From the NCBI GenBank assembly GCA_964648855.1, contig CAZYLT010000010.1, positions 30,001-62,000 of the forward strand: a stretch of DNA of 32,000 nucleotides, written 5' to 3'. Positions 3,451 to 28,564 of the stretch are shown piece by piece; position 1 is the first letter of the stretch; every line of letters begins with the position of its first letter. The position numbers were made by a program, and so were the translations under genes. The DNA is from an uncultured archaeon. GTDB taxonomy: Archaea; Asgardarchaeota; Thorarchaeia; Thorarchaeales; Thorarchaeaceae. The notes under the pieces were generated by a model. The model ran no database searches. It had not been told where the DNA came from and worked only from the letters and a program-made list of their open reading frames with translations.

Positions 3451-5265
3451 ATGCGTATCTCTGTTATTGACCGTGACCGATGCAGACCAACCGACTGCAA
3501 TCATGAATGCAGACGATTCTGCCCCAGAGTTAGAACTGGGGATGAAACAGTCATATTTCCAGATGGACCAGACAAACCTCCAATTATCGTGGAGGAGCTC
3601 TGTTCTGGTGCAGGGATGTGTGTAAAGAAATGTCCTTTCCACGTCATAACCGTTGTGAATCTGCCTGAGAAACTGGAAACTGACGGTACGCACCGTTTTG
3701 GTGTTAACGGCTTCGAGCTATTCAGGATGCCCATTCCCAAGGAAGGAAAAGTCTTAGGTCTAATCGGACCAAACGGCGTTGGAAAGACAACTGCAATCCA
3801 AATACTAGCCGGCGAGTTAAAGCCAAATCTCGGACGAATTGATGCCCCTCCCGATTGGGATGAGATCATCCACCAGTACAGAGGCTCCGAGCTTCAGCCC
3901 TTTTTCGAAAGAATCAGGTCAAATGAAATCACTCCAATCCACAAACCTCAGACCATAACCGACCTTCCTAAAATGAAGTCGATTGCAGACCAACCAATCC
4001 ATGAATTGCTTGAGAATGCTGACTCGTCCGGACGATTGACCGAGCTTAAAACAAGCATGAACCTGACAGATATCTGGGAGCGTCCCATCAAGGTTCTAAG
4101 TGGTGGGGAATTACAGAGAGTTGCCATTACTGCAGCAATTGTACGAGACGGAGACGTGTACTTTTTTGATGAACCGACCGCATATCTTGATGTGCGAGAA
4201 CGGCTTCGTGTCGGCAGAGCTATCAGAGAACTCTCAGACATGGGCAAAACAGTAGTCGTGGTCGAACACGACCTCTCTATCCTAGATTATGTTTCAGATT
4301 TAATCTGCATGTTCTATGGTGATCCAGGTGTATACGGAATCGTTTCGCATCCACATGGAACAAGGGTTGGCATCAACATATTCCTCGATGGATATATTCC
4401 AGACGAAAATATGCGCTTCCGCGACACATCCATTTCTTTCAAGGGCATGACTGCGCAAGATGATACGTTTGCTGGAGCACGAACTTTGCTTGAATATGAA
4501 GATATGAAGAAGGAGTTTGAAGACTTCGAACTAGAAGTTCAAGGTGGCAGCGTGAAGAAAGGCCAGATTGTAGGGATCTTGGGGCCGAATGGTATAGGGA
4601 AGACAACTTTTGTTAAGATGCTTGCAGGTATATTAGAGCCAGATGCAGGGGAAATTCCCACTCAAACCGCTGCAGGGTTTGAACTAAAGGTAAGTTATAA
4701 GCCTCAATATATCGAACAGGACTACTCCGGCACCGTCAGGATGTATTTGCGTGAGGCTGGTGGTAACACAGTAGACACTGCGGATTTCAAAACATCAGTT
4801 ATTCGCAAACTTGGCTTGGAACACCTGATTGACCATGGTGTTACGGATTTGAGTGGTGGAGAATTGCAGCGAGCAGCTATTGCAGCATGCCTCGCAAGGG
4901 ACGCAGACATTTATCTTCTTGACGAGCCTTCAGCTTTCTTGGATATCGAACAGAGACTAGCCGTTTCACGTGCTATTCGCAAACTTGTCCAAGACAAATT
5001 GAGAACTGCATTTGTTGTAGAACACTCAATCCTCATGGCTGACTATCTCAGCGATAGTATGGTTGTGTTTGATGGAATTCCCGGAAAGAAAGGGAGAGCA
5101 TCTCAGGTCCTTACCCTGAGGAAGGGCATGAATGCATTTTTGTCCCAGATGGGTGTCACATTCAGGAGAGACCCTCAGACTGGACGCCCCCGGGTCAACA
5201 AAGAGGGGTCTCAACTGGATCAACAACAAAAGGCAGCCAACGAATACTACTACGTAGGGAAATAG
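3451..5265 (+). CDS. rli: ribosome recycling ATPase ABCE1/RLI1
   Basis: N-terminal Fe-S domain (CRPTDCNHECRRFCP...LCSGAGMCVKKCPF), two NBDs (GPNGVGKTT, GPNGIGKTT; LSGGELQR twice), C-terminal TFRRDPQTGRPRVNK. Confidence 0.98.
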   Translation: MRISVIDRDRCRPTDCNHECRRFCPRVRTGDETVIFPDGPDKPPIIVEELCSGAGMCVKKCPFHVITVVNLPEKLETDGTHRFGVNGFELFRMPIPKEGKVLGLIGPNGVGKTTAIQILAGELKPNLGRIDAPPDWDEIIHQYRGSELQPFFERIRSNEITPIHKPQTITDLPKMKSIADQPIHELLENADSSGRLTELKTSMNLTDIWERPIKVLSGGELQRVAITAAIVRDGDVYFFDEPTAYLDVRERLRVGRAIRELSDMGKTVVVVEHDLSILDYVSDLICMFYGDPGVYGIVSHPHGTRVGINIFLDGYIPDENMRFRDTSISFKGMTAQDDTFAGARTLLEYEDMKKEFEDFELEVQGGSVKKGQIVGILGPNGIGKTTFVKMLAGILEPDAGEIPTQTAAGFELKVSYKPQYIEQDYSGTVRMYLREAGGNTVDTADFKTSVIRKLGLEHLIDHGVTDLSGGELQRAAIAACLARDADIYLLDEPSAFLDIEQRLAVSRAIRKLVQDKLRTAFVVEHSILMADYLSDSMVVFDGIPGKKGRASQVLTLRKGMNAFLSQMGVTFRRDPQTGRPRVNKEGSQLDQQQKAANEYYYVGK

Positions 5266-5276
5266 GGTAGAAATCT

Positions 5277-6104
5277 CTAGAGACCGCGCATCCAGTATTT
5301 TTTGCCTTTGTTGTCTCTGTCTTCGTCCATCTCGTGCAGAATCTTGACAGCTTCATTCCCACACTTGATAACGTCTTTTTCGCCCTTCACTTCAAATTCG
5401 TTTCTCACACGATTAGCATAGACTGCACATACAGCTCCAGTCCTGAATCCGTAGATGTTGCCAAGGGTAAAGAGTGTAGCAGCCTCCATTTCGAAATTCG
5501 CAACGTTTGCTTTAGTCAAGTTCTCAATGAGTTGCTCACTGAAACTCTGAGTATACCCGCCAAAACCGGGACGTGACTGCCCTAGGTAGAATGAATCCGT
5601 GGATGCAGATATGCCAAGATGATACGTGGTACCCAATGACTCCGCCGCTTCAATCAGGGCTAGTATGAATTCGTACGATGGAGTTGCTGGATATTCCAGT
5701 CTGACATATTGCTTGCTTGTCCCCTCTAATCGAACTGCTCCTGTAGAGATGATCAAGTCACCTATTTCGATGTCTGGTTTGAGTGTGGCTGTAGATCCAA
5801 CTCTGAGAAAATTGCGAGCACCCACATTGGCAAGTTCTTCAATCACGATTGCTGTTCCTGGTCCTCCAATCCCTGTCGAACATGCGGAGATTGGAGCATT
5901 CTTGTATTTGCCAGTATGAGTGACGAATTGTCTATGTCTTGCAACTTCTGAGAATGAGTCCCATTGCGAACTTATCTTCTCAACCCGTCCTGGGTCGCCG
6001 GGAACAATGACTGTCGAAGCCACATCTCCCTCTTTGACCTCAAGGTGGTATTGCTCTCTTTCCTGATTGACTGGTCTATCTGCAGATACTCTCTTTTCAG
6101 GCAT
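5277..6104 (-). CDS. udp: uridine phosphorylase
   Basis: QYHL, PGDPGRV, STGIGGP, RVGST, AVRLEGTS, DSFYLGQSR, NFEMEAA. Start ATG 6104 or 6125. Confidence 0.9.
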   Translation of the reverse strand: MPEKRVSADRPVNQEREQYHLEVKEGDVASTVIVPGDPGRVEKISSQWDSFSEVARHRQFVTHTGKYKNAPISACSTGIGGPGTAIVIEELANVGARNFLRVGSTATLKPDIEIGDLIISTGAVRLEGTSKQYVRLEYPATPSYEFILALIEAAESLGTTYHLGISASTDSFYLGQSRPGFGGYTQSFSEQLIENLTKANVANFEMEAATLFTLGNIYGFRTGAVCAVYANRVRNEFEVKGEKDVIKCGNEAVKILHEMDEDRDNKGKKYWMRGL

Positions 6105-6229
6105 TTCTCTCACTAAATGTCCCATTGTAGTACTGCAATTTGTGGTTTTTGTATCAAAATTGGAGTCTGTTTCTACTGTCTAATAATTCATAAGGAGCTT
6201 AAGCAGATGCTCTCTGTAGGTAAGATAAC

Positions 6230-7123
6230 ATGACGGACGTTCTGGATGAAATGGAGCAGCTAAATCTTGGCAAACGGGTTCGACTACACAGGTTGATGTA
6301 TGAACATGGACCGGGGAATGGGCATCTTCTCATTCTTCCAGTTGACCAAGGAATGGAACATGGTCCGGTGGACTTCTTTCCTAATCCTGTTTCTGAGGAC
6401 CCAGACTTTCAATTTAGTCTGGCAAAGGAAGGTGGATTTTCTGGAATAGCACTCCACTTGGGCCTGGCTGAGAAATATGCGAAGAAGTACGCGGGAAGTG
6501 TCCCCATTGTTTTGAAGATAAATGGCAAAACAAAAATTCCTCCTGATGATAATGCCTTGTCGCCGATGACAGGCTCGGTTGAAGATGCTGTGAGAATTGG
6601 TGCTGATGCTATTGGATATACATTGTACGTTGGGAGCCCCAATCAGATTGCAGACTTCACACAATTTAGACAGGTGAAGAAAGATGCTGAGAGATATGGC
6701 ATGCCAATTATCGTGTGGTCTTATCCCAGAGGCTCAGCGATAGCCAAGAAGGGCGGCCGTAACTCACTCTATGCAGTCGATTATGCAGCTAGAGTCGCAA
6801 ATGAGTTAGGGGCGGACGTTGTCAAGCTAAATGTCCCTGAAGATGACGCGGAAACCCGAGGTGGTCAACCTGCTCCTTACGATAGTTTGCAGCTAAATTA
6901 CGAAGAACGTGTTAGGAAGGTCATCAAATCAGCAGGACGTACAAAGGTGCTCTTCTCCGGCGGAAGCAAGATTAGTGATGAGGACCTATTGCATCGCGCG
7001 AGAGTCTGTCTTGAGCAGGGCGCTACAGGTTTGATATTCGGTCGTAATGTATGGCAAAGAGAGTGGGAAGATGCGCTTGATATTACGAATAGATTGAAAC
7101 AACTAATGCTGGAGATTAAATAA
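6230..7123 (+). CDS. fba: class I (DhnA-type) fructose-bisphosphate aldolase
   Basis: LPVDQGMEHGP, VLKING, WSYPRG, ELGADVVKL (Schiff-base Lys), FSGGSK, GLIFGRNVWQR. Confidence 0.9.
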   Translation: MTDVLDEMEQLNLGKRVRLHRLMYEHGPGNGHLLILPVDQGMEHGPVDFFPNPVSEDPDFQFSLAKEGGFSGIALHLGLAEKYAKKYAGSVPIVLKINGKTKIPPDDNALSPMTGSVEDAVRIGADAIGYTLYVGSPNQIADFTQFRQVKKDAERYGMPIIVWSYPRGSAIAKKGGRNSLYAVDYAARVANELGADVVKLNVPEDDAETRGGQPAPYDSLQLNYEERVRKVIKSAGRTKVLFSGGSKISDEDLLHRARVCLEQGATGLIFGRNVWQREWEDALDITNRLKQLMLEIK

Positions 7124-7294
7124 AACCACGTTGAAAGAATGCCGACACTATTATATAGCTGTATAATATCCCTGCCAACTTAGGGGCCTCTGACATCTTC
7201 AGGAGCCGAAACTTCTATTAGCTTCCTCCGGTGTCCGCGCTTGTAAGAGAGCGAGAAGAGGCTCTCAACGGAAAAGGATTGGAGCAATTATAAA

Positions 7295-8446
7295 ATGGTT
7301 GAAACTACAATCAGCGTTATCAAGGCAGACATTGGTTCTCTAGCTGGACATGTTATTGTTCCCGATTTCATTTTGGAATTCGCTCGAAAGGAAATGAAAG
7401 AAGCAGCCAAGAAGAAAATCGTTAATGATTTTTATGTCACTCACGCTGGTGACGATCTTGAATTAATCATGACCCACTTCAAGGGTGAAGATAACGAAGA
7501 GATTCATGAGCTTGCATGGGACACATTCATGAAATGTGCAGATTTGGGACGAGAGCATAAGATCTATGCCGCAGGGCAAGACCTGCTCTCAGATACTTTC
7601 AGCGGAAATGTCAAGGGCATGGGCCCTGGATCTGCTGAAATGACTATTACTGAGAGGAAGTCGGAGCCTATTGCCGTTTTCATGGCTGACAAGACAGACC
7701 CCGGCGCTTTCAATTTTCCACTGTTTAAGATGTTTGCAGACCCATTCAACACAGCAGGCCTAGTAATCGACCCGAATCTTCACGAGGGATTCACATTCAT
7801 CATCCAAGATATCAAGAAGGAGATTCCCTGTTACATTGAAATGAAGTGTCCCAAAGAGATGTATGACGTGATGGCGCTGTTGGGAAGTACCAGCAGATAC
7901 ACCATTAAGAAAGTCTACAGAAACGACGGCCTAGTATGTGGAGCGGTAAGCACCGATAAATTACACATGGTAGCCGGAAAATATGTTGGCAAAGACGATC
8001 CTGTAGCCATAATACGTGCCCACTCCGGGCTTCCTGCCATGGGCGAAGTCCTAGAAGCATTCACACTCCCACATCTCGTGGCTGGTTGGATGAGAGGCTC
8101 TCATGTTGGTCCTTTGATGCCTGTTGCAATCAAAGACTCACGTTGCACACGCTTTGATGGTCCGCCAAGAGTTCTTGGTCTTGGTTTCCAGGTTTGCAAT
8201 GGGGACCTAGTCGGACCTGTTGACTTGTTTGAGGATGTCGCTTTTGATATCACGCGGCAGCGTGCTATGGAGATAGCTGATTATCTTAGACGCATTGGGC
8301 CTTTCGAACCAGGGCACAGACTTGAAGAAACATCAATGGAGTATACTACTCTTCCACGTGTCTTGGACAAATGCGCCACTAGATTCTCGGAAGAAGAAAT
8401 AGTTCCAGAAGATAAGAGCAACGATACATCTGGTTCAGCCGAATAG
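7295..8446 (+). CDS. fbp: bifunctional fructose-1,6-bisphosphate aldolase/phosphatase (class V FBPase)
   Basis: SVIKADIGS..GH, GDD, YAAGQDLL.D.FSGN.KG.GPG, GKYVGKDDP, GWMRGSH, RFDGPP, GPFEP, MEYTT. Confidence 0.98.
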   Translation: MVETTISVIKADIGSLAGHVIVPDFILEFARKEMKEAAKKKIVNDFYVTHAGDDLELIMTHFKGEDNEEIHELAWDTFMKCADLGREHKIYAAGQDLLSDTFSGNVKGMGPGSAEMTITERKSEPIAVFMADKTDPGAFNFPLFKMFADPFNTAGLVIDPNLHEGFTFIIQDIKKEIPCYIEMKCPKEMYDVMALLGSTSRYTIKKVYRNDGLVCGAVSTDKLHMVAGKYVGKDDPVAIIRAHSGLPAMGEVLEAFTLPHLVAGWMRGSHVGPLMPVAIKDSRCTRFDGPPRVLGLGFQVCNGDLVGPVDLFEDVAFDITRQRAMEIADYLRRIGPFEPGHRLEETSMEYTTLPRVLDKCATRFSEEEIVPEDKSNDTSGSAE

Positions 8447-8460
8447 AAATCGTAGAAGAA

Positions 8461-8483
8461 AGGTGGGACATTTTTGTCCCCCC
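8461..8483. terminator. hairpin between convergent fbp and parvulin genes
   Basis: AGG-T-GGGACA-tttt-TGTCCC-C-CCT, 14 nt after the fbp stop. Confidence 0.5.
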
Positions 8484-8520
8484 TCCTTACGTATTCTAAT
8501 GAAGGCCGTTAGATGGCACT

Positions 8521-8805
8521 CTAACCGGTTCTCTTTATGACATGATACCCAAACTTTGTCTTTACGGGTTCATGAGTCATTTGTCCTACATTCATATCGT
8601 AGACTGATTTCTCAAATTCCTTGACCATCTGACCACGTCCAAACCAACCTAGGTCCCCACCCTTTTTTCTAGACGGGCACTCACTATGTTGTTTTGCCAT
8701 GGTTTCGAATTTTTCGCCCTCTTGTATTTTCTTGATGATATCAAGTGCTTTGCTGTGTTTGTTGACTAGTATGTGACTAGCTCGAACTTTTCCACCTTTT
8801 CCCAA
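8521..8805 (-). CDS. single-domain parvulin peptidyl-prolyl isomerase
   Basis: VRASHILV, HSECPS..KGGDLGWF.RGQMVKEFE, PVKTKFGYHVI. TTG 8805 follows an AGGTGA RBS (track start is GTG 8814). Confidence 0.95.
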   Translation of the reverse strand: MGKGGKVRASHILVNKHSKALDIIKKIQEGEKFETMAKQHSECPSRKKGGDLGWFGRGQMVKEFEKSVYDMNVGQMTHEPVKTKFGYHVIKRTG

Positions 8806-8942
8806 AATTTTCACCTAACTTGGTCACAAATCAATTGGTTTTATCTTTGGTGAAAGCTGAAATGCCATGTCTGACTTTTTGCTGCTAAGTGGAAGGCTTT
8901 ATTGTCATTGTACACCTATTGGATGTAGACTGAGGCATAGAA

Positions 8943-9986
8943 ATGAAAGCGGTATTGTTTCACCAACACGGTGGACCCGAAGTACTGAAATACAGTGAAA
9001 TGGAAGATCCAAGACTTCAACCCTCTTCTGTCATAATTGATGTACAAGCAGTAGCGCTGAATCATCTGGACCTCTTTGTAAGAAACGGAATTCCGGGAAT
9101 CAAACTAGAAATGCCTCATATTCTAGGAAGTGACATCTCAGGAATTGTCAAAGAAACCGGCGAACAAGTGCCATCCTCTATAGAAGAAGGCCAACGAGTC
9201 ATAGTTGACCCGGGTTTATCGTGTGGAACTTGTCATGCTTGTATCAGAGGAGAGGAATCACTATGCCCCGACTTTCAGATTATCGGAGAACATGTTAGGG
9301 GTGGATATGCTGAGCTGTTTGAGATTCATCATGAGAATATAATCCCTATTCCTGATTCTTCGAATTTGACTTTCGCAGAAGCTGCCGCGGTGCCATTAAC
9401 GTTCATGACTGCATGGCGATTGATGATGACCAAAGCTAGAGTGAAACCGGGTCAAAAGGTGCTCATTATTGGAATTGGAGGTGGTGTAGCGCTTGCAGCC
9501 TTGCAGATTGCCAAACTCGCAGGGGCAACTGTCTTCGTGACCAGTTCATCCGATGCAAAACTGAAGAAGGCTGAAGGAATGGGTGCCGATTATGGAATAA
9601 ACTACATTGATCAACCGGACTTCCATAAGCAGATATATGCCAAGACCAATTCAAGCGGAGTGGATGTAGTTTTTGACTCTGTGGGCGAAGCGACTTGGCA
9701 AAAGAGCCTTCGTAGCCTGAGAAAGGGTGGTCGTCTGGTCACTTGTGGAGCGACCTCGGGTCCAAACGCAGTCACGAATATTAACCTCGTATTTTGGAAT
9801 CAATTGGAGATTCTGGGCAGCACGATGGCTAGCCGTTCTGAATTACGCGATGTACTCGAACTGGTTTGGGCCGGTAACCTAAAACCGGTCCTCGACCAAA
9901 CGCTACCGCTGTCAATGGCTGCTAAAGCTCATGAAATCCTAGAAAACGGCGAACAGTTTGGAAAAATTGTTCTTGAAACACCATAA
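8943..9986 (+). CDS. NAD(P)-dependent MDR oxidoreductase (quinone reductase / ADH-like)
   Basis: HGGPEVL, ALNHLD, PHILGSD.SG, structural Zn CGTCHAC..LC, GIGGGV, GGRLVTCGATSG, QFGKIVL. Confidence 0.93.
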   Translation: MKAVLFHQHGGPEVLKYSEMEDPRLQPSSVIIDVQAVALNHLDLFVRNGIPGIKLEMPHILGSDISGIVKETGEQVPSSIEEGQRVIVDPGLSCGTCHACIRGEESLCPDFQIIGEHVRGGYAELFEIHHENIIPIPDSSNLTFAEAAAVPLTFMTAWRLMMTKARVKPGQKVLIIGIGGGVALAALQIAKLAGATVFVTSSSDAKLKKAEGMGADYGINYIDQPDFHKQIYAKTNSSGVDVVFDSVGEATWQKSLRSLRKGGRLVTCGATSGPNAVTNINLVFWNQLEILGSTMASRSELRDVLELVWAGNLKPVLDQTLPLSMAAKAHEILENGEQFGKIVLETP

Positions 9987-10075
9987 ATGTGACCTAGTAC
10001 CTAGTATTACCCCAGTACCCACAACAATCAGACACCGTTTAATTATACATTGCCCCCTTCACAAATTTGGTCTAC

Positions 10076-10306
10076 ATGAAAGTCGTAACGATATGCATGC
10101 CTGAATCATATGTCGAAGGTGTTGACAAGTTGATTAATGAGGGCATGTATCCCAATCGATCAGAAGTCATTCGAATTGCTATTCGAGACCTCCTCGTAGA
10201 TGAGCTTTGGGGACAGAATACTAGAACAAGCACAGCGCCATTAGTGGCACAGTTGGACAAATTGTCTCCTCTTGAAGCCCCATCTAATATACGTCCTGTG
10301 AAGTAG
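10076..10306 (+). CDS. ribbon-helix-helix (CopG/Arc/MetJ) transcription regulator, CdrS/aCcr1-like
   Basis: MKVVTICMPESYVEGVDKLINEGMYPNRSEVIRIAIRDLL shows the beta-strand plus YPNRSE.IR.AIRDLL signature. TATA-like TTTAATTATA at 10038-10047. Confidence 0.9.
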   Translation: MKVVTICMPESYVEGVDKLINEGMYPNRSEVIRIAIRDLLVDELWGQNTRTSTAPLVAQLDKLSPLEAPSNIRPVK

Positions 10307-10438
10307 ATTCTCAAGTGAGTACAACTGAAGTACATTTTTGTGCAAGCAATTCCAACTCTATAATTGTTGAAGAAGATCCATGATTGACAATACAATTTGG
10401 ACTGCCCCTCAATTGGACATAAATGGAGTAACACCGCG

Positions 10439-11771
<1,333 letters not shown>

Positions 11772-11825
11772 CCTCTTCCACATGATTTTTCAGCTAACGC
11801 CTCTGCATCAACTCGGAGAAAAATC

Positions 11826-12710
11826 ATGAAGGTATCGCTTCAGTGCGCTCATTGTCTGCTCGAACGAGCAATAAAACAAACCAAGTTAGCATCAGATGAT
11901 CCGGAGCTTCAGATGCAGGTGACATCTGAAATGCTCAAGATGTTGGGCGAGAATTTTGGCCCCGATTCAGTTCCCAGTCATATCGGGACTGATAGGGATC
12001 TTCTTGTGCAGAAGATGACTGGCAAAGACCCCTATGCAGAACTGAAGCAACTATCCAACAAGATGGCATTAAGCATCTTGCCCGAGTTACAGCGAATTGT
12101 CGATGACGAAGGAGATTCAAGAAGTAAGTTCAGAAAAGCTGCATTGATTGCTGCAGCAGCCAATTCCATTGAATTCGATGTATCTGGTCGTGATTTCAGC
12201 CTTGATGAGCTAAAAGAAATCGTTCACAATGTAGAAGAGGACCTTGCAGTCGACGAGGTAGGGGAATTCTATGAGTACTGTAAGAATGCAGATACTGCAT
12301 TATATCTGATGGATAATGCAGGAGAGATCGTCTTGGACATGATTCTGATTAAAGAGATGAAACGTCTGGGCACAGAAGTATTTGCAGTGGTTAAGGGAGG
12401 TCCCATTTTGAACGATGCAACAAGAGAGGATGCTGAAGCAGTAGGTCTCTCAGACTATGCTGACGCAGTAATCGATACTGGTGCACCCGCAATTGGTGTG
12501 AATCGTGAACGTAATTCAGAACCATTTTTGAAGAAGCTCGAGAATGCAGAATTAATCATCGCGAAGGGAATGGGCAATTTCGAAAGCATGACCGAGTTTG
12601 AACCAAAGGCTCCCACTGTTCATATAATGAGAACGAAATGTGCTCCAGTTGCAGGGCATGTGGGTTGTGATGAGAACAAGAATGTTGTCATGATTCGGAA
12701 ACCATCTTGA
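11826..12710 (+). CDS. ARMT1-like / DUF89 damage-control phosphatase
   Basis: C..C, DPYAELK, ANSIEF, DNAGEIVLD, PILNDAT, AKGMGNFES, TKC.PVA. Confidence 0.93.
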   Translation: MKVSLQCAHCLLERAIKQTKLASDDPELQMQVTSEMLKMLGENFGPDSVPSHIGTDRDLLVQKMTGKDPYAELKQLSNKMALSILPELQRIVDDEGDSRSKFRKAALIAAAANSIEFDVSGRDFSLDELKEIVHNVEEDLAVDEVGEFYEYCKNADTALYLMDNAGEIVLDMILIKEMKRLGTEVFAVVKGGPILNDATREDAEAVGLSDYADAVIDTGAPAIGVNRERNSEPFLKKLENAELIIAKGMGNFESMTEFEPKAPTVHIMRTKCAPVAGHVGCDENKNVVMIRKPS

Positions 12711-19019: not shown

Positions 19020-19544
19020 CTATATCGCGTTTCTCCACCGACGCAGTTTTTGAAAGACCTCGGTCATCACTTCTGCGCGAAGCGCCTGCTTTTCAACTTC
19101 ATCTCTTGAGAGTTCCCTCACTTGTGCTGCTGGTGCTCCCGAATTAAGAGACCGAGGTGGAATGACTACATTTGAAGGGATTATACTGCCACTAGTTATC
19201 ATTACTCCCTCGCCAAGAGTTGCTCCATCAAAAATCACACAACCTTCGCCAATCTTGACAGTATCTCCTACATATACACCATGGAGAACAGATGCGGTGC
19301 CGATTACTGTTTTGCTACCAATAATAGCTGGATTCTCTTCATGATGGGCGTGGATTACAACGCTGTCCTGAATACAAGTTGATTGTCCGATTCTGACGGA
19401 TGCTTGGTCCCCTCTGATGACTGCACCGGGCCAAACACAGGATTTTGCTTCAATCTCGACATTTCCAACAATTGTTGCCTGCGGGCTAATGAAGGCCTCC
19501 GGGTCAATAGTCGGATTATGATCACCAAATGGAAGAATAGGCAT
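19020..19544 (-). CDS. gamma-carbonic anhydrase-like hexapeptide-repeat protein
   Basis: P.IDPEAFISPQATIVGNV, WPGAVIRGD, IQDSVVIH, VLHG, SGAPA. Confidence 0.9.
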   Translation of the reverse strand: MPILPFGDHNPTIDPEAFISPQATIVGNVEIEAKSCVWPGAVIRGDQASVRIGQSTCIQDSVVIHAHHEENPAIIGSKTVIGTASVLHGVYVGDTVKIGEGCVIFDGATLGEGVMITSGSIIPSNVVIPPRSLNSGAPAAQVRELSRDEVEKQALRAEVMTEVFQKLRRWRNAI

Positions 19545-19555
19545 TATTTCTTACC

Positions 19556-19921
19556 TCAGCGGAGCTGTTCAATAACATTTTCGTAGTATTCAGCAGGTCT
19601 TAGACCGATAATCCTGTCAGTAGTCTTTTTCTCTCCGGTTCTTGGATTCTCTTCCTCAATCTCAGCAGGCTTGCCATCCTTATATACGAGGACACAAGGG
19701 ATTGCAACAATGTTGTTGGCAGCTGCAAATGACCTATACTCTTGGGTATTTATCTTCACAAATGAAATGTCATCATTGTCTGCGTGTTTATTTTCGAGTT
19801 CTTCAAGAATCGGGCCGAGTGCCAAACAGGGTCCACACCATGGGGCCCAGGCATCAACAAACAGGATTTTCGTTTCTGTAATCCTCTTTTCTATTTCTTC
19901 TGGACTAAAATCGCTTACCAC
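19556..19921 (-). CDS. trxA: thioredoxin
   Basis: VDAWAPWCGPC, cis-Pro loop AIPC. Confidence 0.92.
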   Translation of the reverse strand: MVSDFSPEEIEKRITETKILFVDAWAPWCGPCLALGPILEELENKHADNDDISFVKINTQEYRSFAAANNIVAIPCVLVYKDGKPAEIEEENPRTGEKKTTDRIIGLRPAEYYENVIEQLR

Positions 19922-19999
19922 TACTCTTCACTCCATGACGTATTAACAAATGAGCTGACCTATTCAATATTCCTACTATGAAACTAAAATAAAAACGAA

Positions 20000-20036
20000 T
20001 ACTCCGATTCAGGTATGTTGGTCTGAATCCGGAGTG
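20000..20036 (-). terminator. stem-loop + U-tract terminator after the upstream thioredoxin
   Basis: ACTCCG-ATTCAG...CTGAAT-C-CGGAGT stem; on the - strand followed by TTCGTTTTTATTTT. Confidence 0.6.
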
Positions 20037-20048
20037 TATGCTCGACAT

Positions 20049-20411
20049 CTATGCCGGTGCTTCTGCCAGCAAATTCTCTGCGACCTGTTCATAGACTTCA
20101 GGAGGCATTACTCCGACCAACTTGTCGGTCTTGTTGCCCTGTCCATCATCAAAGACAACTTTCTTGCCCTCTGCATATACAAGCACGCTTGGAACACCAG
20201 TTATTTGATTCTGAGCGCTGAATGTTCGATTCTGATCCACGTCAATCTTTACTACTTTGAGCCCCTTTTCGTTGTATTTGTCATGAAGCTCTTCAAGAAT
20301 TGGTGTCAATGCCTTGCACGGCCCGCACCATACGGCGTGGCAATCTACAAACACTACTTTGTTCTCGGATACAATATTGTCCAACTTATCGGAGTTGATT
20401 TCTTCAACCAT
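20049..20411 (-). CDS. trxA: thioredoxin
   Basis: VDCHAVWCGPC, KIDVDQN, TGVPS. Start reassigned to ATG 20411 (MVEEINSDK) after a GGGAG RBS. Confidence 0.93.
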   Translation of the reverse strand: MVEEINSDKLDNIVSENKVVFVDCHAVWCGPCKALTPILEELHDKYNEKGLKVVKIDVDQNRTFSAQNQITGVPSVLVYAEGKKVVFDDGQGNKTDKLVGVMPPEVYEQVAENLLAEAPA

Positions 20412-20428
20412 TATGTAATCTCCCTTAT

Positions 20429-20455
20429 CGGTTGTGATAATTTCATTCACAACCG
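20429..20455. promoter_or_regulatory. perfect 9-bp inverted repeat (candidate operator) in the thioredoxin promoter
   Basis: CGGTTGTGA-N9-TCACAACCG between a - strand TTTTAA box (20456-20461) and the RBS. Confidence 0.55.
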
Positions 20456-20469
20456 TTAAAAGGCTTTTG

Positions 20470-21654
20470 CTAGCTCGGTGCTTCTTTCTTCGGCAGGGAA
20501 AAATGAAATTGTGATCCCACTCCAACTTTACTCGTTGCCCAAATCTTCCCGTTGTGTTCATCAACAATTCGCTTGGAGATTGCCAAACCCAAACCAGTGC
20601 TCTTTTCTCCCCCTGTCGCCTTTACAGATGTTTTTGTGAATGGCTTGAACAAGCTTGCAATTTCTTTCTGGGGAATTCCTTGTCCCTCATCTACGACCTC
20701 AACAATCACCTCATCTTCCTCGTATATGATTCTCACCAATACTTGGGACCGAGGGTAGGAGTACTTGATTGCGTTACTCACGAGATTCTGAATAACCTGA
20801 CGTATCTTGTCTTTGTCAATCCTGATTTTTTCTTGTTTTCCATCCTCCTCCACTTCTATCTGAATTGACTTCTTTTCAGCGATTGGCTTCAGCATAGTCA
20901 AGACTTCTTCAACCAACGTCGATAAGCTGGTCACCTCCTTCTCCAATTGCACTCTTCCAGACTCAATGGCCGAGAGATCAAGAGCTTCCTCCACGAGATT
21001 CCTCATATAATCAGTATAGTTTTCAATCTGTGCGAGGAATTCAACTTCAGTTTCATCAAGTCTTTCGCTTGCAGATGTTCGCACATATTCACTTGCCATT
21101 TGGATGGCCCCCAGAGGGTTTCGAAGGTCATGAGCAAGCATTCCAAGAAACTGGTTCTTCAAATCAACGAGCCGTTCAAGTTCTTGATTCTTCTTTGCAA
21201 TCTTTCGCTGCATTGTAGATAATTCATTATTCAAGCGCATCAGTTCATTGTGGATTCCATGGATGCGTTTACTTCCCGACTGACTCGTTCTCGCCGCCTC
21301 TTTCAATGCCCTTCTGAACGTGTTGATTTGTTCATTGTCAATTTCTATGAGTATGTTGTAGTAGGTATGCAAATCCTCAATGCTAGAGGCAGCGATTATC
21401 AATATCTTGTCTTCCACCAAGATTCCTGAAAACAAGAAAGTATGAATATGCTCCTCATAGCTAATATTCATCTCCCAATTATATGCTGTTTTTTCTTTAG
21501 CAATTTTCGAGATGAAAAGGTCTACCTTCTGCTCACTACCAGAATCTACGATATTTTTGAGATTGTTACCCACTTTCAGACCGCTCATGCCGCGCGCAGC
21601 ATCAACCAATCCTATAATCTCTCCATCGGGTGTACAGAGAATGCTAAATGCCAT
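20470..21654 (-). CDS. cytoplasmic sensor histidine kinase (PAS-like + coiled coil + HisKA + HATPase)
   Basis: H-box LAHDLRNPL; N-box QNLVSNAIKYS; G1 DEGQGI; F-box LFKPF; G2 STGLGLAI. No TM segment; AAGGAG RBS. Confidence 0.96.
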   Translation of the reverse strand: MAFSILCTPDGEIIGLVDAARGMSGLKVGNNLKNIVDSGSEQKVDLFISKIAKEKTAYNWEMNISYEEHIHTFLFSGILVEDKILIIAASSIEDLHTYYNILIEIDNEQINTFRRALKEAARTSQSGSKRIHGIHNELMRLNNELSTMQRKIAKKNQELERLVDLKNQFLGMLAHDLRNPLGAIQMASEYVRTSASERLDETEVEFLAQIENYTDYMRNLVEEALDLSAIESGRVQLEKEVTSLSTLVEEVLTMLKPIAEKKSIQIEVEEDGKQEKIRIDKDKIRQVIQNLVSNAIKYSYPRSQVLVRIIYEEDEVIVEVVDEGQGIPQKEIASLFKPFTKTSVKATGGEKSTGLGLAISKRIVDEHNGKIWATSKVGVGSQFHFSLPKKEAPS

Positions 21655-21681
21655 GGATTTCTGCTCCTTGTGCGCCTAGTT

Positions 21682-22740
21682 TTACCTGATTATTTCTTCT
21701 GCCATTTCAACGGCCTTCTCTGCAGTTTCCGCAGTGCCATCAGCACGTACTCTTCTCCAGAGGTCAGGATCAATGAAAAACGGATTTCCACCAACAATTA
21801 TCTTCAAGCCATTTAACTCAGAGTCCTTCCTTACTGCTTCTATCAGGTCCCTCACACTTGGGATATTGGTTGTAATGGTTGCTGAGATTGCAAGAATGTC
21901 TGCATTTCGTTCCTTCAGTGTTTCAATGATACTGGATGTTGGAGTGTTAGCTCCCATATAGTACGAATTCCATCCACTCATTTCAAAAAGGTCTGCAACC
22001 ATCCGAACGCCAATTTCGTGAAGCTCGCCGGCAATACAAGTGGCTACGATGGTTTTTGACGATTTTCCTGTGTTCATGACTTGAGGGTACAACTGTGACA
22101 TGATTAGTTGTGTGGCCGCAGTGCAATAATGCTCTTCAGCGACAATGATTTTATTTGTCTGCCACAGGCGGCCAATCTCATGCAGGACCGGCTCAAACAC
22201 CTTAAGGTAGATGTCTTTAATGCTTATACCTTCCTCCACTGCATCAAGAATCATTTTGCTTGCAATCTGCCTGTCTCCCTGAAGAAGCGTATTGAGATAC
22301 TGGGTAGCCAAGACAGACATTGAAGGGTCATCTCCCATAAACGACGGGATGTCCTCCGATGCAGAATCCAAAACGCGAATGCCCTCTTCGATGAATGAAT
22401 GCAACTTCTGTTCTTTATCTAGCGGAAGAGTTTCACCTAGCGCCATCTCGGAACATTGTAGGGCTATTTTGACATTCTCTATAGCTATACCTATGCTTGA
22501 CATAAATGCCCTTACCCACTTCATATACGATTGGAACAGCGTCATGCTGTCCATTTCCATGGCAGAGAGAAGATAAGAGATGTGATACTCGATATCTTCC
22601 TTGCAAATCTCCCAGTCTCTCTCATTCATCTTTTCTTCCAATTCGGGTTGTTTCTCGAGCTGGCATTCAAATACCCTATCTACTAAGTCTATCATGTTAT
22701 CTTGTTTCATTATCGAAATTGGCTTGATTCTCGATGTCAT
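21682..22740 (-). CDS. globin (phycobiliprotein-like) + CarH-type cobalamin-binding domain protein (photoglobin/photocobilin-like)
   Basis: N-terminal CKEDIEYHISYL..A...F.SY..W; B12 cap IGRLWQTNKIIVAEEH (Wx9EH); Rossmann GELHEIG, MGANTP, ISAT, IVGG. ATG 22740 lies 8 nt after GAGGT. Confidence 0.88.
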   Translation of the reverse strand: MTSRIKPISIMKQDNMIDLVDRVFECQLEKQPELEEKMNERDWEICKEDIEYHISYLLSAMEMDSMTLFQSYMKWVRAFMSSIGIAIENVKIALQCSEMALGETLPLDKEQKLHSFIEEGIRVLDSASEDIPSFMGDDPSMSVLATQYLNTLLQGDRQIASKMILDAVEEGISIKDIYLKVFEPVLHEIGRLWQTNKIIVAEEHYCTAATQLIMSQLYPQVMNTGKSSKTIVATCIAGELHEIGVRMVADLFEMSGWNSYYMGANTPTSSIIETLKERNADILAISATITTNIPSVRDLIEAVRKDSELNGLKIIVGGNPFFIDPDLWRRVRADGTAETAEKAVEMAEEIIR

Positions 22741-22881
22741 GTCCAAGTACCTCTGATGAAATGTGGTTTTCAGTGTATCTGTTCAATTCATTTGATGGAT
22801 TTATGTAAAATTCTTACTAGATAAATTGACGGTGAGTGCCAAAATTTGATAAGCTAAGCTCTCAGGTTCAATACGCTTGTC

Positions 22882-25518
22882 TTGGTGATATCGGTGCCTG
22901 TCCTTCATTGCCCTAAATGCGGATCTAAACTCGACATTTTCAAAGGTGGTCCGATATGGACGGTTCGCTGCAGGGCGTGTAGCAGAGAGATATCAGTTGA
23001 CGGGCGCAAGAATGACCTTTTCGATGCGTATGACGCCTATGTCAAGGCTCTAAATGATGGTACATTACTTGCAACTAGTGGAACGGTAGCCAAAAAGAGT
23101 CGAAAGCCCTCCAAGAAACCTAGGATAAGGTCCTCGGGCGACCGGGTACAATCAGAGGATCAAATCGAGAAAAGGGTAGAGGATGGTGGATTAACTCTCG
23201 AAGATTTACCTGAATCTCTCCAAGACCTTCTGAGAACAGGTCGGGACTATCTAGTATCCTATCGGTTTATGGAGGAAACTGATGCAGTCTATGGCACTGC
23301 AGTGGAAGACATGAAGATATCACAGAGATTGAAAGAGTTGCTCAAGGAGAAGGGGATCCATCGCTTGTATCGCTTTCAAGAGCGGGCGTTCAAAAAAATA
23401 GGTGATGGACTTAACGTTGTAATTTCAGCTCCAACCGCTCAGGGCAAAACTGAGGCTTTTGTTCTTCCAATAATCAAACAAATCCTTCTCTCGATTCAAG
23501 AGGCCATGTTCAACCCTGGTGTTCGTGCACTATTGATGTACCCCACCAAGGCCTTGGCTAGAGACCAATATGATAAGATAAAGGAGATGTGTGAAGCCTC
23601 AGGGCTATCTGCTGCAATATTTGATGGAGATGTTTCTCAACACGATAGACGGAAGATTTACGAACGCCCCCCAGACATTCTGTTGACAAATCCAGATATC
23701 TTGCATTATCACTTGGGATGGGATCGTTCTCGCCTAGTTCCACTACTAAGGACAGTCAAATATGTGGTTCTTGATGAGATTCATCTCTACACCGGTTCTA
23801 TGGGGTCAAACATATACTATATTCTGAAGCGTCTCCAAATACAGTGTGGTACATTTCAAAAAATAGGTGCATCTGCTACCATTTCAAACCCCAAGGAATT
23901 TGGTGACCTCATCTTTGATTCCGAAGTAGAACTCATCGAATCAGAGAGTGCAAAACGCGGCCCTATCCATTTCATGATGTATTATCCAGGGGACAGAAGT
24001 AAGTATTCCATGATTGTAGATCTTGTCCAAATGCTTTACCAATCCGATTTTCAGACTCTCGTATTTGGAAATACTCATTCTGAGGCAGAAGTACTCAATA
24101 TGCTGCTTCGAGATACTGGCGTGAACTCGATGGTTCATCGGGCAGGCCTCTCTAAGAAATATCGAAACAAGGTTGAAGAGCAGTTCAGACAAGGCGAACT
24201 CAAGGTACTTGTTTCAACCCCCACCCTTGAACTTGGTATCGACATTGGGGATTTGGATTGTGTAGTGAGCATAATTGTATCAATAACTCGCCTTACGCAA
24301 AGGATTGGGCGTGCGGGACGCAAGGGGCAGGAAAGCGTAGCAATTCTTGCCTTACGAGACAATGACCCAATCTCCTCTTTCTATAGAAGCAAACCAGAGA
24401 AATTCTTCACAGATATTGATGCAGCTTATATGGAACCCGACAATGAGGTTGTGGCTCGGTATCAATTAATCGCTGCTGCAATGAGTGGAAAGATGACTAC
24501 GGAAATGTTTCCCAAACAAGAGAAAGTGCTGCAAAGCCTAGTCGATGAAGGCGTCCTACGAGTCACTGATCGAGGGAAGGTGCAAGTTGCAGATTATGAA
24601 ACCGCTCGGAAGCAATGGAGAAGCTATAGTATCAGGGGCATTGGTGATACAGTTGAAATTCGCCTCAAGCGTAAGAAGCTAGGTGAACGCTCTATGCCCA
24701 TGGCCGCCCAAGAGCTTCATCCCGGAGCCATTTATCTTCATGGTGGCTCAAACTACCTGTGTGTTGATTTCAAGTATCGAGAAGGGCTTGGCAAGGCTGA
24801 TGTAGTGTCTCTTGCCGATCGAAGTGCATATACTAAACCACTCTACTCAACAATGCCAAAAATCATAGAGATACATGAGGAACGGACCGTACTGGGAGCA
24901 AAACTATCCTATTGCACTCTAGAGATGACCCAGACCGTTGACGGATATGTGAAGAAAGAAACACGTTCGGGGAGAATACTGAGTCATCATAATCTTGGCG
25001 AACCAATTGTATACAAATACAGGACCCGTGGTTTTGTATTTAGAGCGCCTGAGCCGAGTAAGTTGATAAACGAGTATCTTGAAGGCAAGATGAAGCACAC
25101 ACATGGTCGTGAGCTAACCCCAATCGAGCTCTATGGAGGAGCTTTTCACGCTTTGGAGCATGTGATTATCGAATCGAGCGACATGCTTACTGGTGGAGGA
25201 ACCCGTGAGATTGGAGGCGTTTCCATGGGTGACTCTGGAATCATCTTTGTATATGATGGAAGTCCCGGCGGAAATGGTGCATCCAAGCTACTCTTTGGTA
25301 GATTCGAAGAGGCTCTTGAACGGGCAAAGACAATCCTTGAAAAATGTGAATGCAAGAAGATTGATGGCTGTCCCCTTTGTACATATTCATATCAATGTGG
25401 AAATAATAATTCACCTCTCTTCAGATATGGTGCCTTGGAGAGTGTAGACCTTCTGTTGAAGAGTGCTGAAACAAAGGCTGATCTTGAGAACTACCAAGGA
25501 TATCAGCCATTGGTGTGA
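22882..25518 (+). CDS. SF2 DEAD/DEAH helicase with C-terminal DUF1998 Zn domain (Hrq1/MrfA/SftH-like) and N-terminal Zn ribbon
   Basis: LYRFQ, APTAQGKT, YPTKALARDQ, DEIH, SAT, TLELGIDIG, QRIGRAGR, YDG.PGGNG, CEC..DGCPLC...QC. Confidence 0.95.
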   Translation: MVISVPVLHCPKCGSKLDIFKGGPIWTVRCRACSREISVDGRKNDLFDAYDAYVKALNDGTLLATSGTVAKKSRKPSKKPRIRSSGDRVQSEDQIEKRVEDGGLTLEDLPESLQDLLRTGRDYLVSYRFMEETDAVYGTAVEDMKISQRLKELLKEKGIHRLYRFQERAFKKIGDGLNVVISAPTAQGKTEAFVLPIIKQILLSIQEAMFNPGVRALLMYPTKALARDQYDKIKEMCEASGLSAAIFDGDVSQHDRRKIYERPPDILLTNPDILHYHLGWDRSRLVPLLRTVKYVVLDEIHLYTGSMGSNIYYILKRLQIQCGTFQKIGASATISNPKEFGDLIFDSEVELIESESAKRGPIHFMMYYPGDRSKYSMIVDLVQMLYQSDFQTLVFGNTHSEAEVLNMLLRDTGVNSMVHRAGLSKKYRNKVEEQFRQGELKVLVSTPTLELGIDIGDLDCVVSIIVSITRLTQRIGRAGRKGQESVAILALRDNDPISSFYRSKPEKFFTDIDAAYMEPDNEVVARYQLIAAAMSGKMTTEMFPKQEKVLQSLVDEGVLRVTDRGKVQVADYETARKQWRSYSIRGIGDTVEIRLKRKKLGERSMPMAAQELHPGAIYLHGGSNYLCVDFKYREGLGKADVVSLADRSAYTKPLYSTMPKIIEIHEERTVLGAKLSYCTLEMTQTVDGYVKKETRSGRILSHHNLGEPIVYKYRTRGFVFRAPEPSKLINEYLEGKMKHTHGRELTPIELYGGAFHALEHVIIESSDMLTGGGTREIGGVSMGDSGIIFVYDGSPGGNGASKLLFGRFEEALERAKTILEKCECKKIDGCPLCTYSYQCGNNNSPLFRYGALESVDLLLKSAETKADLENYQGYQPLV

Positions 25519-25538
25519 TAGATGGAGGATGCTGGAAA

Positions 25539-27473
25539 ATGCAGTATATGATTGAACGCGGACATGATGGGCCTGCCAGAGTAGGTAATCTTAGTATTGG
25601 AGCAACCAAGTTAGAGCTACCCGCACTTATGGGTACCACAATGATTCCTGATGCTGACTGTGAATATTATGTTCCTAATCGAGATTCACCATCCAGCAAT
25701 AGACTCAGTATCATGGCTCCAACGTTTGTTTCACTCTCAGACATCAGTGATTTTGACTTGCCAAGCACAACCGAACCGATTTTATCCCCTGTTTCTCCTG
25801 CGATACCTAATTTGGGCAAGGAAGCGAGCAGGATTGTTCTAGATGAGCAAATTAACAGAATCAGGGATTTGAAAGATGAAGCGACTTCAAGTAACTGGAT
25901 TCTTCGAATACCAAGTTCTCTGCATCCTCATGAGCTAAAGGAAGGGACATTCAAGTTCCAAAGGTTGGGCATTAGGACTGTTTCCTTCTTGTTCGATGGA
26001 AATCTTGGACCCACCTCTCTCGACAATCTACGACTTAGAAGTCTGATTCCAAGAAATTGGGCTGTTGTTGCACTTGGGTGCGTCAAACCCGACATGATTC
26101 CTATTTTGTACTATTTCGGATTCGATATCTTTGACATTGGCTATGCGGAGCATGCCGCATCCCGAAATATCCGGCTTTGGTCAAACCATGAAGAAGACCT
26201 GTCCAAAGATGGTCATCCCATTGACTGCAGATGTCAATATTGTACAGATGCGAATCTCATGAGCGGGGAGCTTCCTAGCATGGCAGCACTTCTTAACCAC
26301 AATGTGAGCACATACATAACCCGTTTATCGGAGGCGGTTCATTTTCATTCAATGGGACAGTTGCGATGGCTTGTTGAGAGCAATACACATAGTCGTCCTG
26401 CATTAGCAGCTCTTCTGCGACGAGCTGATAATCAAACCTACGACTTCATCGAGGAGTTCACACCAACCATTGGGGATGAACCCCAACCTCTTATTGGACC
26501 CGAATCCTACAATGCTCCTGCAATAAGACGCTACAGAGAACGGCTTTCGGAGCGATACACCCCTCCTGAGGACCGGGAAGTCGTACTTCTCCTTCCTTGC
26601 TCGGCCAGAAAGCCATATTCCGATTCTCGGTCCCACCGTCGATTTGGCAGGTCGGTTGAACGTGCCCTAGGCTCAAAGCGAAGGAACGTGGCTGAAGTTA
26701 TTGTATCTTCACCAATTGGCATTGTCCCACGGGCATTGGAGAGAATGTACCCCGTGAAGAACTACGACATACCTGTTACTGGTAGCTGGGATGCTGAAGA
26801 GATTGAGATTGCAGCCTCTGCACTGACGACACATTTGGCGAAGTTTCCTAAATCTGCCACGGTTGTCGCTCATGTTTCTGGGGGCTACCAAGAGGTTGTG
26901 CAAGCTGCAGAGGGTGACATCAGTCAGAGCCTTATCTACACAATCGAGGATGGTTCTGCAACAAAGAAATCTTCTTTGGAGTCACTTGAAGAGGCTCTCC
27001 TCGACCTCTCTGATATTCATGAACTTAGCGGTGGCGTTCCTACGCTGCTTGAAGATACCGTGTATGCCACACTTGACTTCCAATTTGGGGCAGGAGCAGG
27101 CAAACTAGTAACGGCTGGAAATGCAAGTTACCGTGGGAAAGTATACGGAAATATCGTTTGTGAGGTTGATGATGTTCAGATGTGTACTTTCGTAAGCGAA
27201 ATTGGAACTGCATCCTTGACCCTTGAGGGTGGAGAGCGCCTCCTACCGCTGGAGAGATATCAGGTTCATTTTGATGGCGAGAAATTGAGAGGTGGCTCAT
27301 TATTTGCCGTGGGCATCACTGAGGCTGATTCGATTATTCGTCCAGGGGATGAGGTTCTCATCATTGGGCGTGACGGAGATTTGATTGCAGTTGGAAAAAG
27401 TGAGATGTCAGGAACCGAGATGCGTGACTTTGACAATGGAATGGCTGTCAATATCAGACATAGCAGGAGCTGA
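25539..27473 (+). CDS. arcS: archaeosine synthase alpha subunit (TGT paralog with PUA domain)
   Basis: HDGPARVG, C.C.YC..HN Zn site, LLPCSARKPYSDSRSH signature, YDIPVTGSWD, C-terminal PUA domain (FAVGI..AD..IRPGDEV). Confidence 0.93.
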   Translation: MQYMIERGHDGPARVGNLSIGATKLELPALMGTTMIPDADCEYYVPNRDSPSSNRLSIMAPTFVSLSDISDFDLPSTTEPILSPVSPAIPNLGKEASRIVLDEQINRIRDLKDEATSSNWILRIPSSLHPHELKEGTFKFQRLGIRTVSFLFDGNLGPTSLDNLRLRSLIPRNWAVVALGCVKPDMIPILYYFGFDIFDIGYAEHAASRNIRLWSNHEEDLSKDGHPIDCRCQYCTDANLMSGELPSMAALLNHNVSTYITRLSEAVHFHSMGQLRWLVESNTHSRPALAALLRRADNQTYDFIEEFTPTIGDEPQPLIGPESYNAPAIRRYRERLSERYTPPEDREVVLLLPCSARKPYSDSRSHRRFGRSVERALGSKRRNVAEVIVSSPIGIVPRALERMYPVKNYDIPVTGSWDAEEIEIAASALTTHLAKFPKSATVVAHVSGGYQEVVQAAEGDISQSLIYTIEDGSATKKSSLESLEEALLDLSDIHELSGGVPTLLEDTVYATLDFQFGAGAGKLVTAGNASYRGKVYGNIVCEVDDVQMCTFVSEIGTASLTLEGGERLLPLERYQVHFDGEKLRGGSLFAVGITEADSIIRPGDEVLIIGRDGDLIAVGKSEMSGTEMRDFDNGMAVNIRHSRS

Positions 27474-27478
27474 CAATC

Positions 27479-28564
27479 ATGAATGAGCAATTACTGAGGA
27501 TAGTTCAGGACGAAATTATGAAATCACGCGGGTCTTCAATCCGACGGAGAAGAAGCGGTGATCTCAGTGCGGCGTCGTCAGCTTGGGTTACGACAGCTAA
27601 TCTCAAAGACGAATTAGGAAAGGCAATATCTGTTGTTCTGAATACTATAGGATGCTCGCATGCCCGTGGAGATGCGGGTGGCTGCACTATGTGTAGCTAC
27701 TTGCTTGATGGTACCGCCAGAAATCCAACTCCTGAGCAACTCATCTCCCAGTTTGAGGGTGCAGTATCCAAGCTCGATGGCGAATCTGCACCGTTGTCAG
27801 TGAAGATATACACAAGTGGAAGCTTCCTCGACCCAGAAGAAATCCCTTCAAATGCGCGAAAGCATATTCTCGACAAGATTGCATTAGATGATAGAATTGT
27901 ACAAGTTGTCCTTGAATCGCGCCCTGAATATGTCTTAGATGACACGATGTCACAAATCAGGAGTATTCTTGGAGAGCGCGACATAGAGATTGGGATCGGT
28001 CTGGAAAGCAGCAGCGATGCCATTCGCAATCTGTGTATCAATAAGGGCTTCTCATTGAGGGATTTTCAGAGAGCAAAAGCCATCGCTAATGAACACGAAA
28101 TAGGGGTTCGGTCCTATGTCTTGGTCAAGCCCCCCTTTCTGACAGAACGCGACAGCATAATTGATGCTGTCAAGACCATCACCGATGTGATTGAGATGGG
28201 AGTTACCACAGTGTCTGTGAATCCTGTCAACGTGCAGAAGTATACTCTTGTTGAGTATCTGTGGCGAAATCGAGAGTATAGGCCTCCCTGGTTATGGAGT
28301 GTTGTTGAGATACTAAAGAGGGCTTACGACGAATCAGAAGGTGCGGTTCCAATCATTTGTGACCCCGTTGCCAATGGAAAAGAACGCGGAACACATAACT
28401 GCGGAAAATGTGATGCAGAATTTACCCGAGCTATCAGGGATTTCTCATTACATCAGAATACTGACGTATTTACGCAACTAGACTGCGATTGCAAAGAGAA
28501 CTGGGAGCACATCCTAAGACATGAAGACGCATCCAATCTAGTCCACGCAACGCGAATGAAGTAG
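27479..28564 (+). CDS. archaeosine biosynthesis radical SAM enzyme RaSEA
   Basis: GCSHARGDAGGCTMCSY, KIYTSGSFLD, ESRPEYV, GLES, VKPPFLTE, YRPPWLWS, RG.HNCGKCD; adjacent to arcS. Confidence 0.93.
   Translation: MNEQLLRIVQDEIMKSRGSSIRRRRSGDLSAASSAWVTTANLKDELGKAISVVLNTIGCSHARGDAGGCTMCSYLLDGTARNPTPEQLISQFEGAVSKLDGESAPLSVKIYTSGSFLDPEEIPSNARKHILDKIALDDRIVQVVLESRPEYVLDDTMSQIRSILGERDIEIGIGLESSSDAIRNLCINKGFSLRDFQRAKAIANEHEIGVRSYVLVKPPFLTERDSIIDAVKTITDVIEMGVTTVSVNPVNVQKYTLVEYLWRNREYRPPWLWSVVEILKRAYDESEGAVPIICDPVANGKERGTHNCGKCDAEFTRAIRDFSLHQNTDVFTQLDCDCKENWEHILRHEDASNLVHATRMK

Follow-up and report, generated by a model that had tools for sequence, protein, structure and literature searches.

The window, meaning the whole stretch of 32,000 nucleotides that was analysed, comes from the genome of a Thorarchaeon, in agreement with the archaeal host given in the preliminary description. 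It contains two adjacent genes on the minus strand (Table 1). One encodes a photoglobin-B12 sensor and its reading frame is intact. The other starts 27 nt downstream and encodes a histidine kinase. The expected link of such a sensor to a signalling output is supported by this adjoining gene.

Table 1. Positions of genes, domains and motifs in the window
Feature	Positions	Strand	Remarks
Housekeeping block: RLI ATPase, class I aldolase, FBP aldolase/phosphatase, triosephosphate isomerase, damage-control phosphatase	3451-12710
Two tandem thioredoxins and hexapeptide-repeat (gamma carbonic anhydrase-like) gene	19020-20411		conserved core synteny
Accessory two-gene cassette	20477..22834		between divergent helicase and thioredoxin genes
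Soluble partner histidine kinase: PAS, two helices, HisKA (His175), HATPase	20470..21654	-	394 aa; Pfam, structure search
Family-specific helix NNELxxxQRxxxxKN, kinase aa 133-163	21166..21258	-	candidate docking site; profiles, docking inferred
Weaker repeat of partner helix	21295-21372	-
PAS-fold N-terminal domain of kinase, aa 1-92	21379..21654	-	top structural matches all PAS, best Z 11.9
AAGGAG ribosome-binding site of partner kinase	21664-21669	-
Photoglobin-B12 sensor gene: globin, four-helix cap, Rossmann B12 domain, without output domain	21682..22740	-	352 aa; ATG 22740, stop 21682
Rossmann B12-binding domain with lower-ligand His241	21685..22065	-	Pfam, motifs
GxxxP motif of sensor	21940-21954	-	read from sequence
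GxxH lower-ligand motif of sensor	22009-22029	-	read from sequence
Four-helix cap (B12-binding_2)	22078..22326	-	Pfam, conservation
Cap motif E203H204	22129-22134	-	read from sequence
Cap motif G190xxW193	22162-22173	-	read from sequence
Phycobiliprotein-type globin domain, aa 12-126	22363..22707	-	VIA-align Z and weak SasPcob sequence match
W75, invariant, corresponding to SasPcob Trp296	22516..22518	-	pairwise alignment, conservation
C46-K-E-D49 pocket motif (D49 corresponding to SasPcob Asp270, C46 to Thr)	22594..22605	-	pairwise alignment, conservation
GAGGT putative ribosome-binding site, 8 nt upstream of sensor ATG	22749..22753	-	from sequence
DEAD/MrfA-type helicase, DUF5591-PUA protein (archaeosine-synthase-like), conserved 361-aa ORF	22882-28564

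Distribution and ancestry of the cassette

Full-length sensor copies were found in 3 of 86 genomes of the host's family and in 18 of 400 genomes of the phylum. The family carriers are the host (G000) and two further genomes (G025 and G026), all with the gene at the same site, and the sensor and kinase pair is syntenic in another genus. The gap between the helicase and thioredoxin genes measures approximately 150-200 bp in most family genomes, versus approximately 2.5 kb in the three carriers. Furthermore, a genome of the same genus (G075) has an empty site, where the DNA upstream of the thioredoxins is retained without the cassette. One contig of metagenome run X4 skips positions 20476-22894 with near-identical flanks, the short one comprising only 30 letters. 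The empty sites and this contig indicate that the sensor-kinase cassette is accessory.

Two other views of the locus were rejected. The GC and GC3 values of the cassette match those of its neighbours, which argues against a recent foreign insertion. The tandem thioredoxins were not accepted as a part of the module, because they belong to the core gene set, being present in 80 of 86 family genomes, and the DNA upstream of them persists where the cassette is missing. The helicase-thioredoxin gap (20412-22881) is an insertion hot spot, in which other family genomes hold unrelated, mostly membrane-protein-like genes.

The three carriers are not sisters on the helicase tree. On the unrooted sensor gene tree, the Asgard label needs 4-5 changes, no bootstrap tree contained a single Asgard clade, and the nearest relatives of the Thorarchaeal sensors were other Asgard sequences (clade support 99/97). 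The patchy carriers and the repeated label changes fit recurrent lateral transfer and loss. Of the acquisition from bacteria proposed earlier, lateral transfer is therefore consistent with the distribution, but the direction was not borne out by an unrooted tree with Asgard nearest relatives; transfer from bacteria to archaea is plausible.

Domain architecture and known relatives of the sensor

The Pfam search of the sensor placed B12-binding_2 at aa 145-217 (E 4.5e-15) and B12-binding at aa 230-344 (E 3.8e-24), with no match in the first 140 residues. In the AlphaFold model (monomer, pLDDT 90.9), residues 3-125 matched allophycocyanin 8or7_A with Z 15.1 and an rmsd of 2.6 Å over 122 aligned residues, and the globin matched 8imk_G with Z 14.9 (both by VIA-align). 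The N-terminal helical part is thus predicted to adopt the globin fold that had been suspected. It pairs with allophycocyanin residues 33-159, so the N-terminal assembly helices are missing, and the model has the six-helix phycocyanin-like globin without N-terminal helix pair that is typical of photoglobins. The best structural matches of the model were the photocobilins 8j2w and 8j2y (Z 26.5, rmsd 1.8-2.0 Å, approximately 208 aa, in the B12 module); the methyltransferase corrinoid protein 3ezx scored below them with Z 23.4.

The B12 module contains W193-x9-E203H204, with a spacer of exactly nine residues, and G238-E-L-H241-E-I-G. Together with G190-W193 (GxxW), E203H204 (EH), G238-H241 (GxxH) and G263-P267 (GxxxP), the published and experimentally validated light signature of B12 domains is complete.

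At E<=0.001, 3,140 homologues of the sensor were collected, the best ones with 43-51% identity. W193, E203, H204, H241 and W75 were invariant in an alignment of 110 homologues and D49 was kept in 109, which indicates that these motifs did not arise by chance. The best-conserved stretch was aa 186-219 of the cap (mean column identity 0.90). Position 46 was Cys in 48, Ser in 50 and Tyr in 11 of the 110 homologues. Position 48, where CxRD has Arg, is Glu in the sensor and mostly Gln in the homologues, with Arg in 11 of 110.

These data bear on three motifs named in the preliminary description. The CarH-type AdoB12 signature in the C-terminal part was confirmed. The GELHEIG motif is present, but its Glu does not mark a class, as position 239 is Asp in 68 and Glu in 42 of the 110 homologues. 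Of the phycobiliprotein helix C-x-R-D, Cys46 and Asp49 are kept, but the Arg is absent and the Cys varies among homologues; the sensor reads CKED instead of the CxRD covalent attachment motif of phycobiliproteins, BBAG-1 and BBAG-3. In planctomycete homologues, Asp49 is lost and the genomes are without the partner module, and they are possibly a separate subfamily. Split forms were seen in a methanogen and in Desulfobacterales, where the B12 module, the globin and the helix-bearing kinase are encoded in this order by separate genes.

The sensor has the photoglobin residues, namely Asp49, a hydrophobic residue at position 80 (M80) and one of Cys, Ser or Thr at position 46 (C46), and its globin is fused to B12-binding_2 and B12-binding with a signalling gene adjacent. 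It is almost certainly a member of the photoglobin family, and the proposed kinship to photoglobins and photocobilins was upheld. The photoglobin type model WP_077839650.1 has the same domain order and Cys46 and Asp49 at identical positions; it differs at position 80, which is Met in the sensor, not Leu. The photoglobin paper (Schneider et al., PMC8717448), a computational study, describes this architecture, archaeal members, the residues C46, D49 and L80, and links to two-component genes. The host is archaeal, as claimed, but with archaeal members and the Cys46/Asp49 pattern already described there, the surprise attached to a mainly bacterial family is small. This paper mentions Asgard archaea zero times; in the passages covered, it lists the S-helix among transmitters and does not describe the partner motif presented below. 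Among the papers retrieved, none was an experimental study of the globin-first form.

The photocobilins SasPcob and AbDPcob (Zhang et al. 2024, PMC10979010; 8J2W, 8J2X, 8J2Y) share with the sensor the B12 module, W-EH and ExH, and also the stand-alone form, which in the sensor would act in trans; stand-alone photocobilins control an enzyme in this way. The biliverdin pocket residues Asp270 and Trp296 of SasPcob correspond to D49 and W75, and a Thr corresponds to C46, according to a weak pairwise sequence alignment (chain numbering offset +5) and to conservation. In contrast, the globin is N-terminal in the sensor and C-terminal in photocobilins, the identity is only approximately 25%, Cys replaces the Thr of SasPcob at the distal site, the partner is a histidine kinase, and no biliverdin source was found in the host; the sensor is known here from sequence and model.

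CarH and CtMerR (5C8D, 8JBS) share the adenosyl pocket signature, and relatives of the sensor lie beside carotenoid genes. Unlike them, the sensor has no DNA-binding domain, its N-terminal part being a globin (NF052513, 58 bits vs cut-off 400), and has Gln in place of CarH His132. Phycobiliproteins and BBAGs (PMC10151467) share the globin fold and the Cys-x-x-Asp chromophore helix; the sensor differs from them by the missing assembly helices, by CxED in place of CxRD, and by a context without haem oxygenase or bilin reductase.

Partner kinase and its family-specific helix

The PAS region of the kinase was missed by Pfam and was seen in a single-sequence model, which has pLDDT 48-79 there and is usable for the PAS part only. 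Genes downstream of the sensor homologues encode varied outputs, with a PAS domain present or missing, preceded by a common helix, NNELxxxQRxLxxKN, for which Pfam had no match. A helix profile from 13 bacterial partners gave the partner kinase 38 bits, and the next best of 9,874 ORFs 7.3 bits.

The association was followed in 240 unseen genomes from the phylum of Desulfomonile. Full-length sensors occurred in seven and the partner module in seven, with both in six genomes and adjacent in 6/6; the lone sensor without partner runs off its contig. The Fisher p value of 2e-10 for this overlap is overstated, as related genomes do not count as independent. The partner kinase was present on a different contig from the sensor in two Desulfomonile-type genomes. 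Among Asgard genomes without the sensor, the partner profile gave one weak, PAS-only match; its 11 strong Asgard matches are training-set members and were left out of the supporting evidence. When the kinase N-terminus served as the query of a word-index search, only 2 proteins were returned, which reflects the sensitivity limit of the search and not rarity. Several Asgard sensor copies are without any partner gene, so outputs other than the partner helix are possible. Two Asgard genomes have as partner a protein of approximately 120 aa with the conserved helix and a Cys-rich C-terminal domain and no kinase.

A structural precedent is given by AppA-PpsR and AerR-CrtJ (PMC9144470; 7TE2, 4HH3). 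AppA and AerR likewise consist of cap and Rossmann domain without their own output (Z 21.9 and 21.4), and in AppA-PpsR, as in the model of AerR-CrtJ, the fourth cap helix faces a long helix after the N-terminal PAS domain, to which AppA binds. The target there is a transcription factor, whereas it would be a kinase here, and the helix sequence differs. The tracking of the sensor by the helix, the conserved cap stretch and this precedent together make docking a reasoned inference, with the NNELxxxQR helix as the candidate site at which the sensor would dock. When the sensor was modelled in complex with kinase residues 1-170 in two copies, the prediction scored 0.11 (mark 0.32) and was taken neither for nor against docking. 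The sensor probably controls the adjacent histidine kinase. The host genome encodes 11 receiver domains elsewhere, and no receiver gene was found near the cassette.

Light, corrinoid status and bilin as possible inputs

The clade nearest to the Thorarchaeal proteins on the sensor tree includes three copies from another Asgard family, which are without kinase and lie among genes for phytoene synthase, desaturases, prenyltransferase, photolyase, fasciclin and a rhodopsin-like protein. In a third Asgard family, a sensor copy lies beside crtB/crtI, at most 3 kb from crtB. These sister copies support a role in light response. Genome G361 (contig C257) has a second photoglobin-B12 copy (locus 3503-10504) between two HMG-CoA-synthase-like ORFs, next to crtB, crtI and a possible carotene hydroxylase gene. 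Four genomes of one Asgard genus (G180:C17, G181:C38, G185:C50 and G183:C113) contain a kinase-less photoglobin-B12 gene, with neither partner nor DNA-binding domain, within carotenoid clusters; in two of them, a photolyase gene and a rhodopsin-like gene of only 203-212 aa are also present.

The host genome has a carotenoid cluster of crtI, crtB, crtD and a lycopene-elongase-like gene (G000:C1:235763-240900) on a different contig from the cassette, which suggests C50 carotenoids. It also encodes two cobalamin adenosyltransferases, PduO and CobA; the CobA gene lies approximately 8 kb from the carotenoid cluster. crtB was present in all three sensor carriers, and also in 18 of 86 family genomes and 10 of 16 genera. 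As it is common at the genus level, this co-occurrence is weak evidence and was dropped as support. Rhodopsin profiles gave no match in G000, where the rhodopsin controls also gave no signal, and heliorhodopsin gave no match in G000 with the profiles used. A heliorhodopsin gene was seen in the cassette-free G075 (C14:26926-27678).

On balance, we favour the reading that the protein is an AdoCbl photoreceptor of the stand-alone photoglobin type, which would control the adjacent kinase by protein contact. Sequence and model place His241 below the corrin and the adenosyl pocket of Trp193, Glu203 and His204 above it, with the globin packed on. By analogy with CarH and photocobilins, the sensor would load AdoCbl made by PduO and CobA, and green light would split the Co-C bond and move the Glu-His cap helix. 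As Gln194 occupies the site of CarH His132, the light state is more likely to have water as a ligand, as in SasPcob, than to be of the bis-His kind. The cap helix may then dock on the NNELxxxQR helix before the kinase core and switch His175 autophosphorylation with either sign, as suggested by the co-occurrence and by AppA and AerR. In the weakest step, phosphate would pass to an unlinked receiver protein, with photo-oxidative protection, for example by the host carotenoid genes, as the presumed output.

It is rather unlikely that the protein instead works independently of light as a corrinoid-status or redox sensor, which would read Ado-, methyl- or aquo-cobamide and signal to the same kinase. 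The W-EH signature foretold a light response in every protein assayed in published work, and the sister copies have carotenoid, photolyase and rhodopsin genes as neighbours. The source metagenome runs, which are from a microbial mat in one study, also fit a role of light. Other data on habitat point the other way: Thorarchaeia are enriched in deep anoxic mat layers according to a preprint, and homologues are common in dark-habitat anaerobes such as Desulfomonile and a methanogen. Furthermore, photolyase profiles gave no match in G000, G025 or G026, the host genome uses corrinoid methyltransferases, and the output of AbDPcob is already altered by AdoCbl binding alone (PMC10979010).

It is clearly unlikely that the protein is a genuine dual-chromophore sensor of red and green light, in which Cys46 holds a bilin covalently. 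In favour of this reading, all three Thorarchaeal copies retain Cys46, the position of bilin attachment in phycobiliproteins, conservation extends to Asp49 and Trp75, and the related BBAG globins self-assemble with bilins. However, Cys occurs in fewer than half of the aligned homologues (48/110) and in 5 of 20 Asgard rows, Phe or Tyr replaces it in the Asgard copies from carotenoid clusters, and the Arg of CxRD is missing. In SasPcob, biliverdin is bound non-covalently, flipped by ~180 degrees and without thioether, with contacts to Asp270 and to Trp296, which touches both its D ring and the corrin (PMC10979010). The covalent attachment through the retained Cys that had been suggested was thus not supported.

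Biliverdin formation requires oxygen. Profile searches for haem oxygenase, IsdG-like ABM and HemS found none in G000, G025 and G026, and only a weak PNPOx-like gene appeared in the bilin-related searches of the carriers; an ABM gene lies directly upstream of the sensor in the closest non-Asgard relative. As the host genome is 94.6% complete, the absence of haem oxygenase, ABM, HemS, photolyase, rhodopsin and heliorhodopsin is not proven. The earlier claim of a dual chromophore was not supported for this organism, and a second pigment in the sensor is doubtful. The conserved globin pocket makes bilin binding in vitro likely, and judging from its residues the pocket can probably bind a bilin non-covalently. 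In this organism, it is likely empty or filled with scavenged pigment alone, and occupancy in vivo would need scavenging or another route. The sensor probably works like a photocobilin without an assured bilin. It would be more speculative still, and is improbable, that the helix is a dedicated docking module, new to the literature, with which globin-first photoglobins of bacteria and Asgard archaea switch kinases and other outputs in trans, and that a mat-scavenged bilin linked to Cys46 gives an anaerobic Asgard archaeon red/green two-component control.

It is very improbable that the protein carries the corrinoid of a methyltransferase or is a decaying relic with no role in sensing: the top NCBIfam matches are corrinoid proteins, all far under cut-off (TIGR02370, 72 bits vs 215), and the cassette is dispensable, but the sensor has W-x9-EH, which the host's real methyltransferase corrinoid protein lacks, no methyltransferase adjoins it, the two reading frames are undisrupted and keep their catalytic motifs, and another genus has the pair in synteny.

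As a protein, the sensor is what would be expected from a large family that has already been described. Three points are new: the sensor gene and that of a PAS-helix-histidine kinase make up an accessory cassette in three family genomes; the partner helix, unmatched in Pfam, tracks the sensor gene; and sister copies in other Asgard genomes are found within clusters of carotenoid, photolyase and rhodopsin genes. Asgard archaea are known to sense light via rhodopsins; if the favoured reading is true, the coupling of a B12 photoreceptor to a histidine kinase would give them a second way to do so. The photoglobin family stands to gain more, as the conserved partner helix offers a precise, testable interface for stand-alone sensors.
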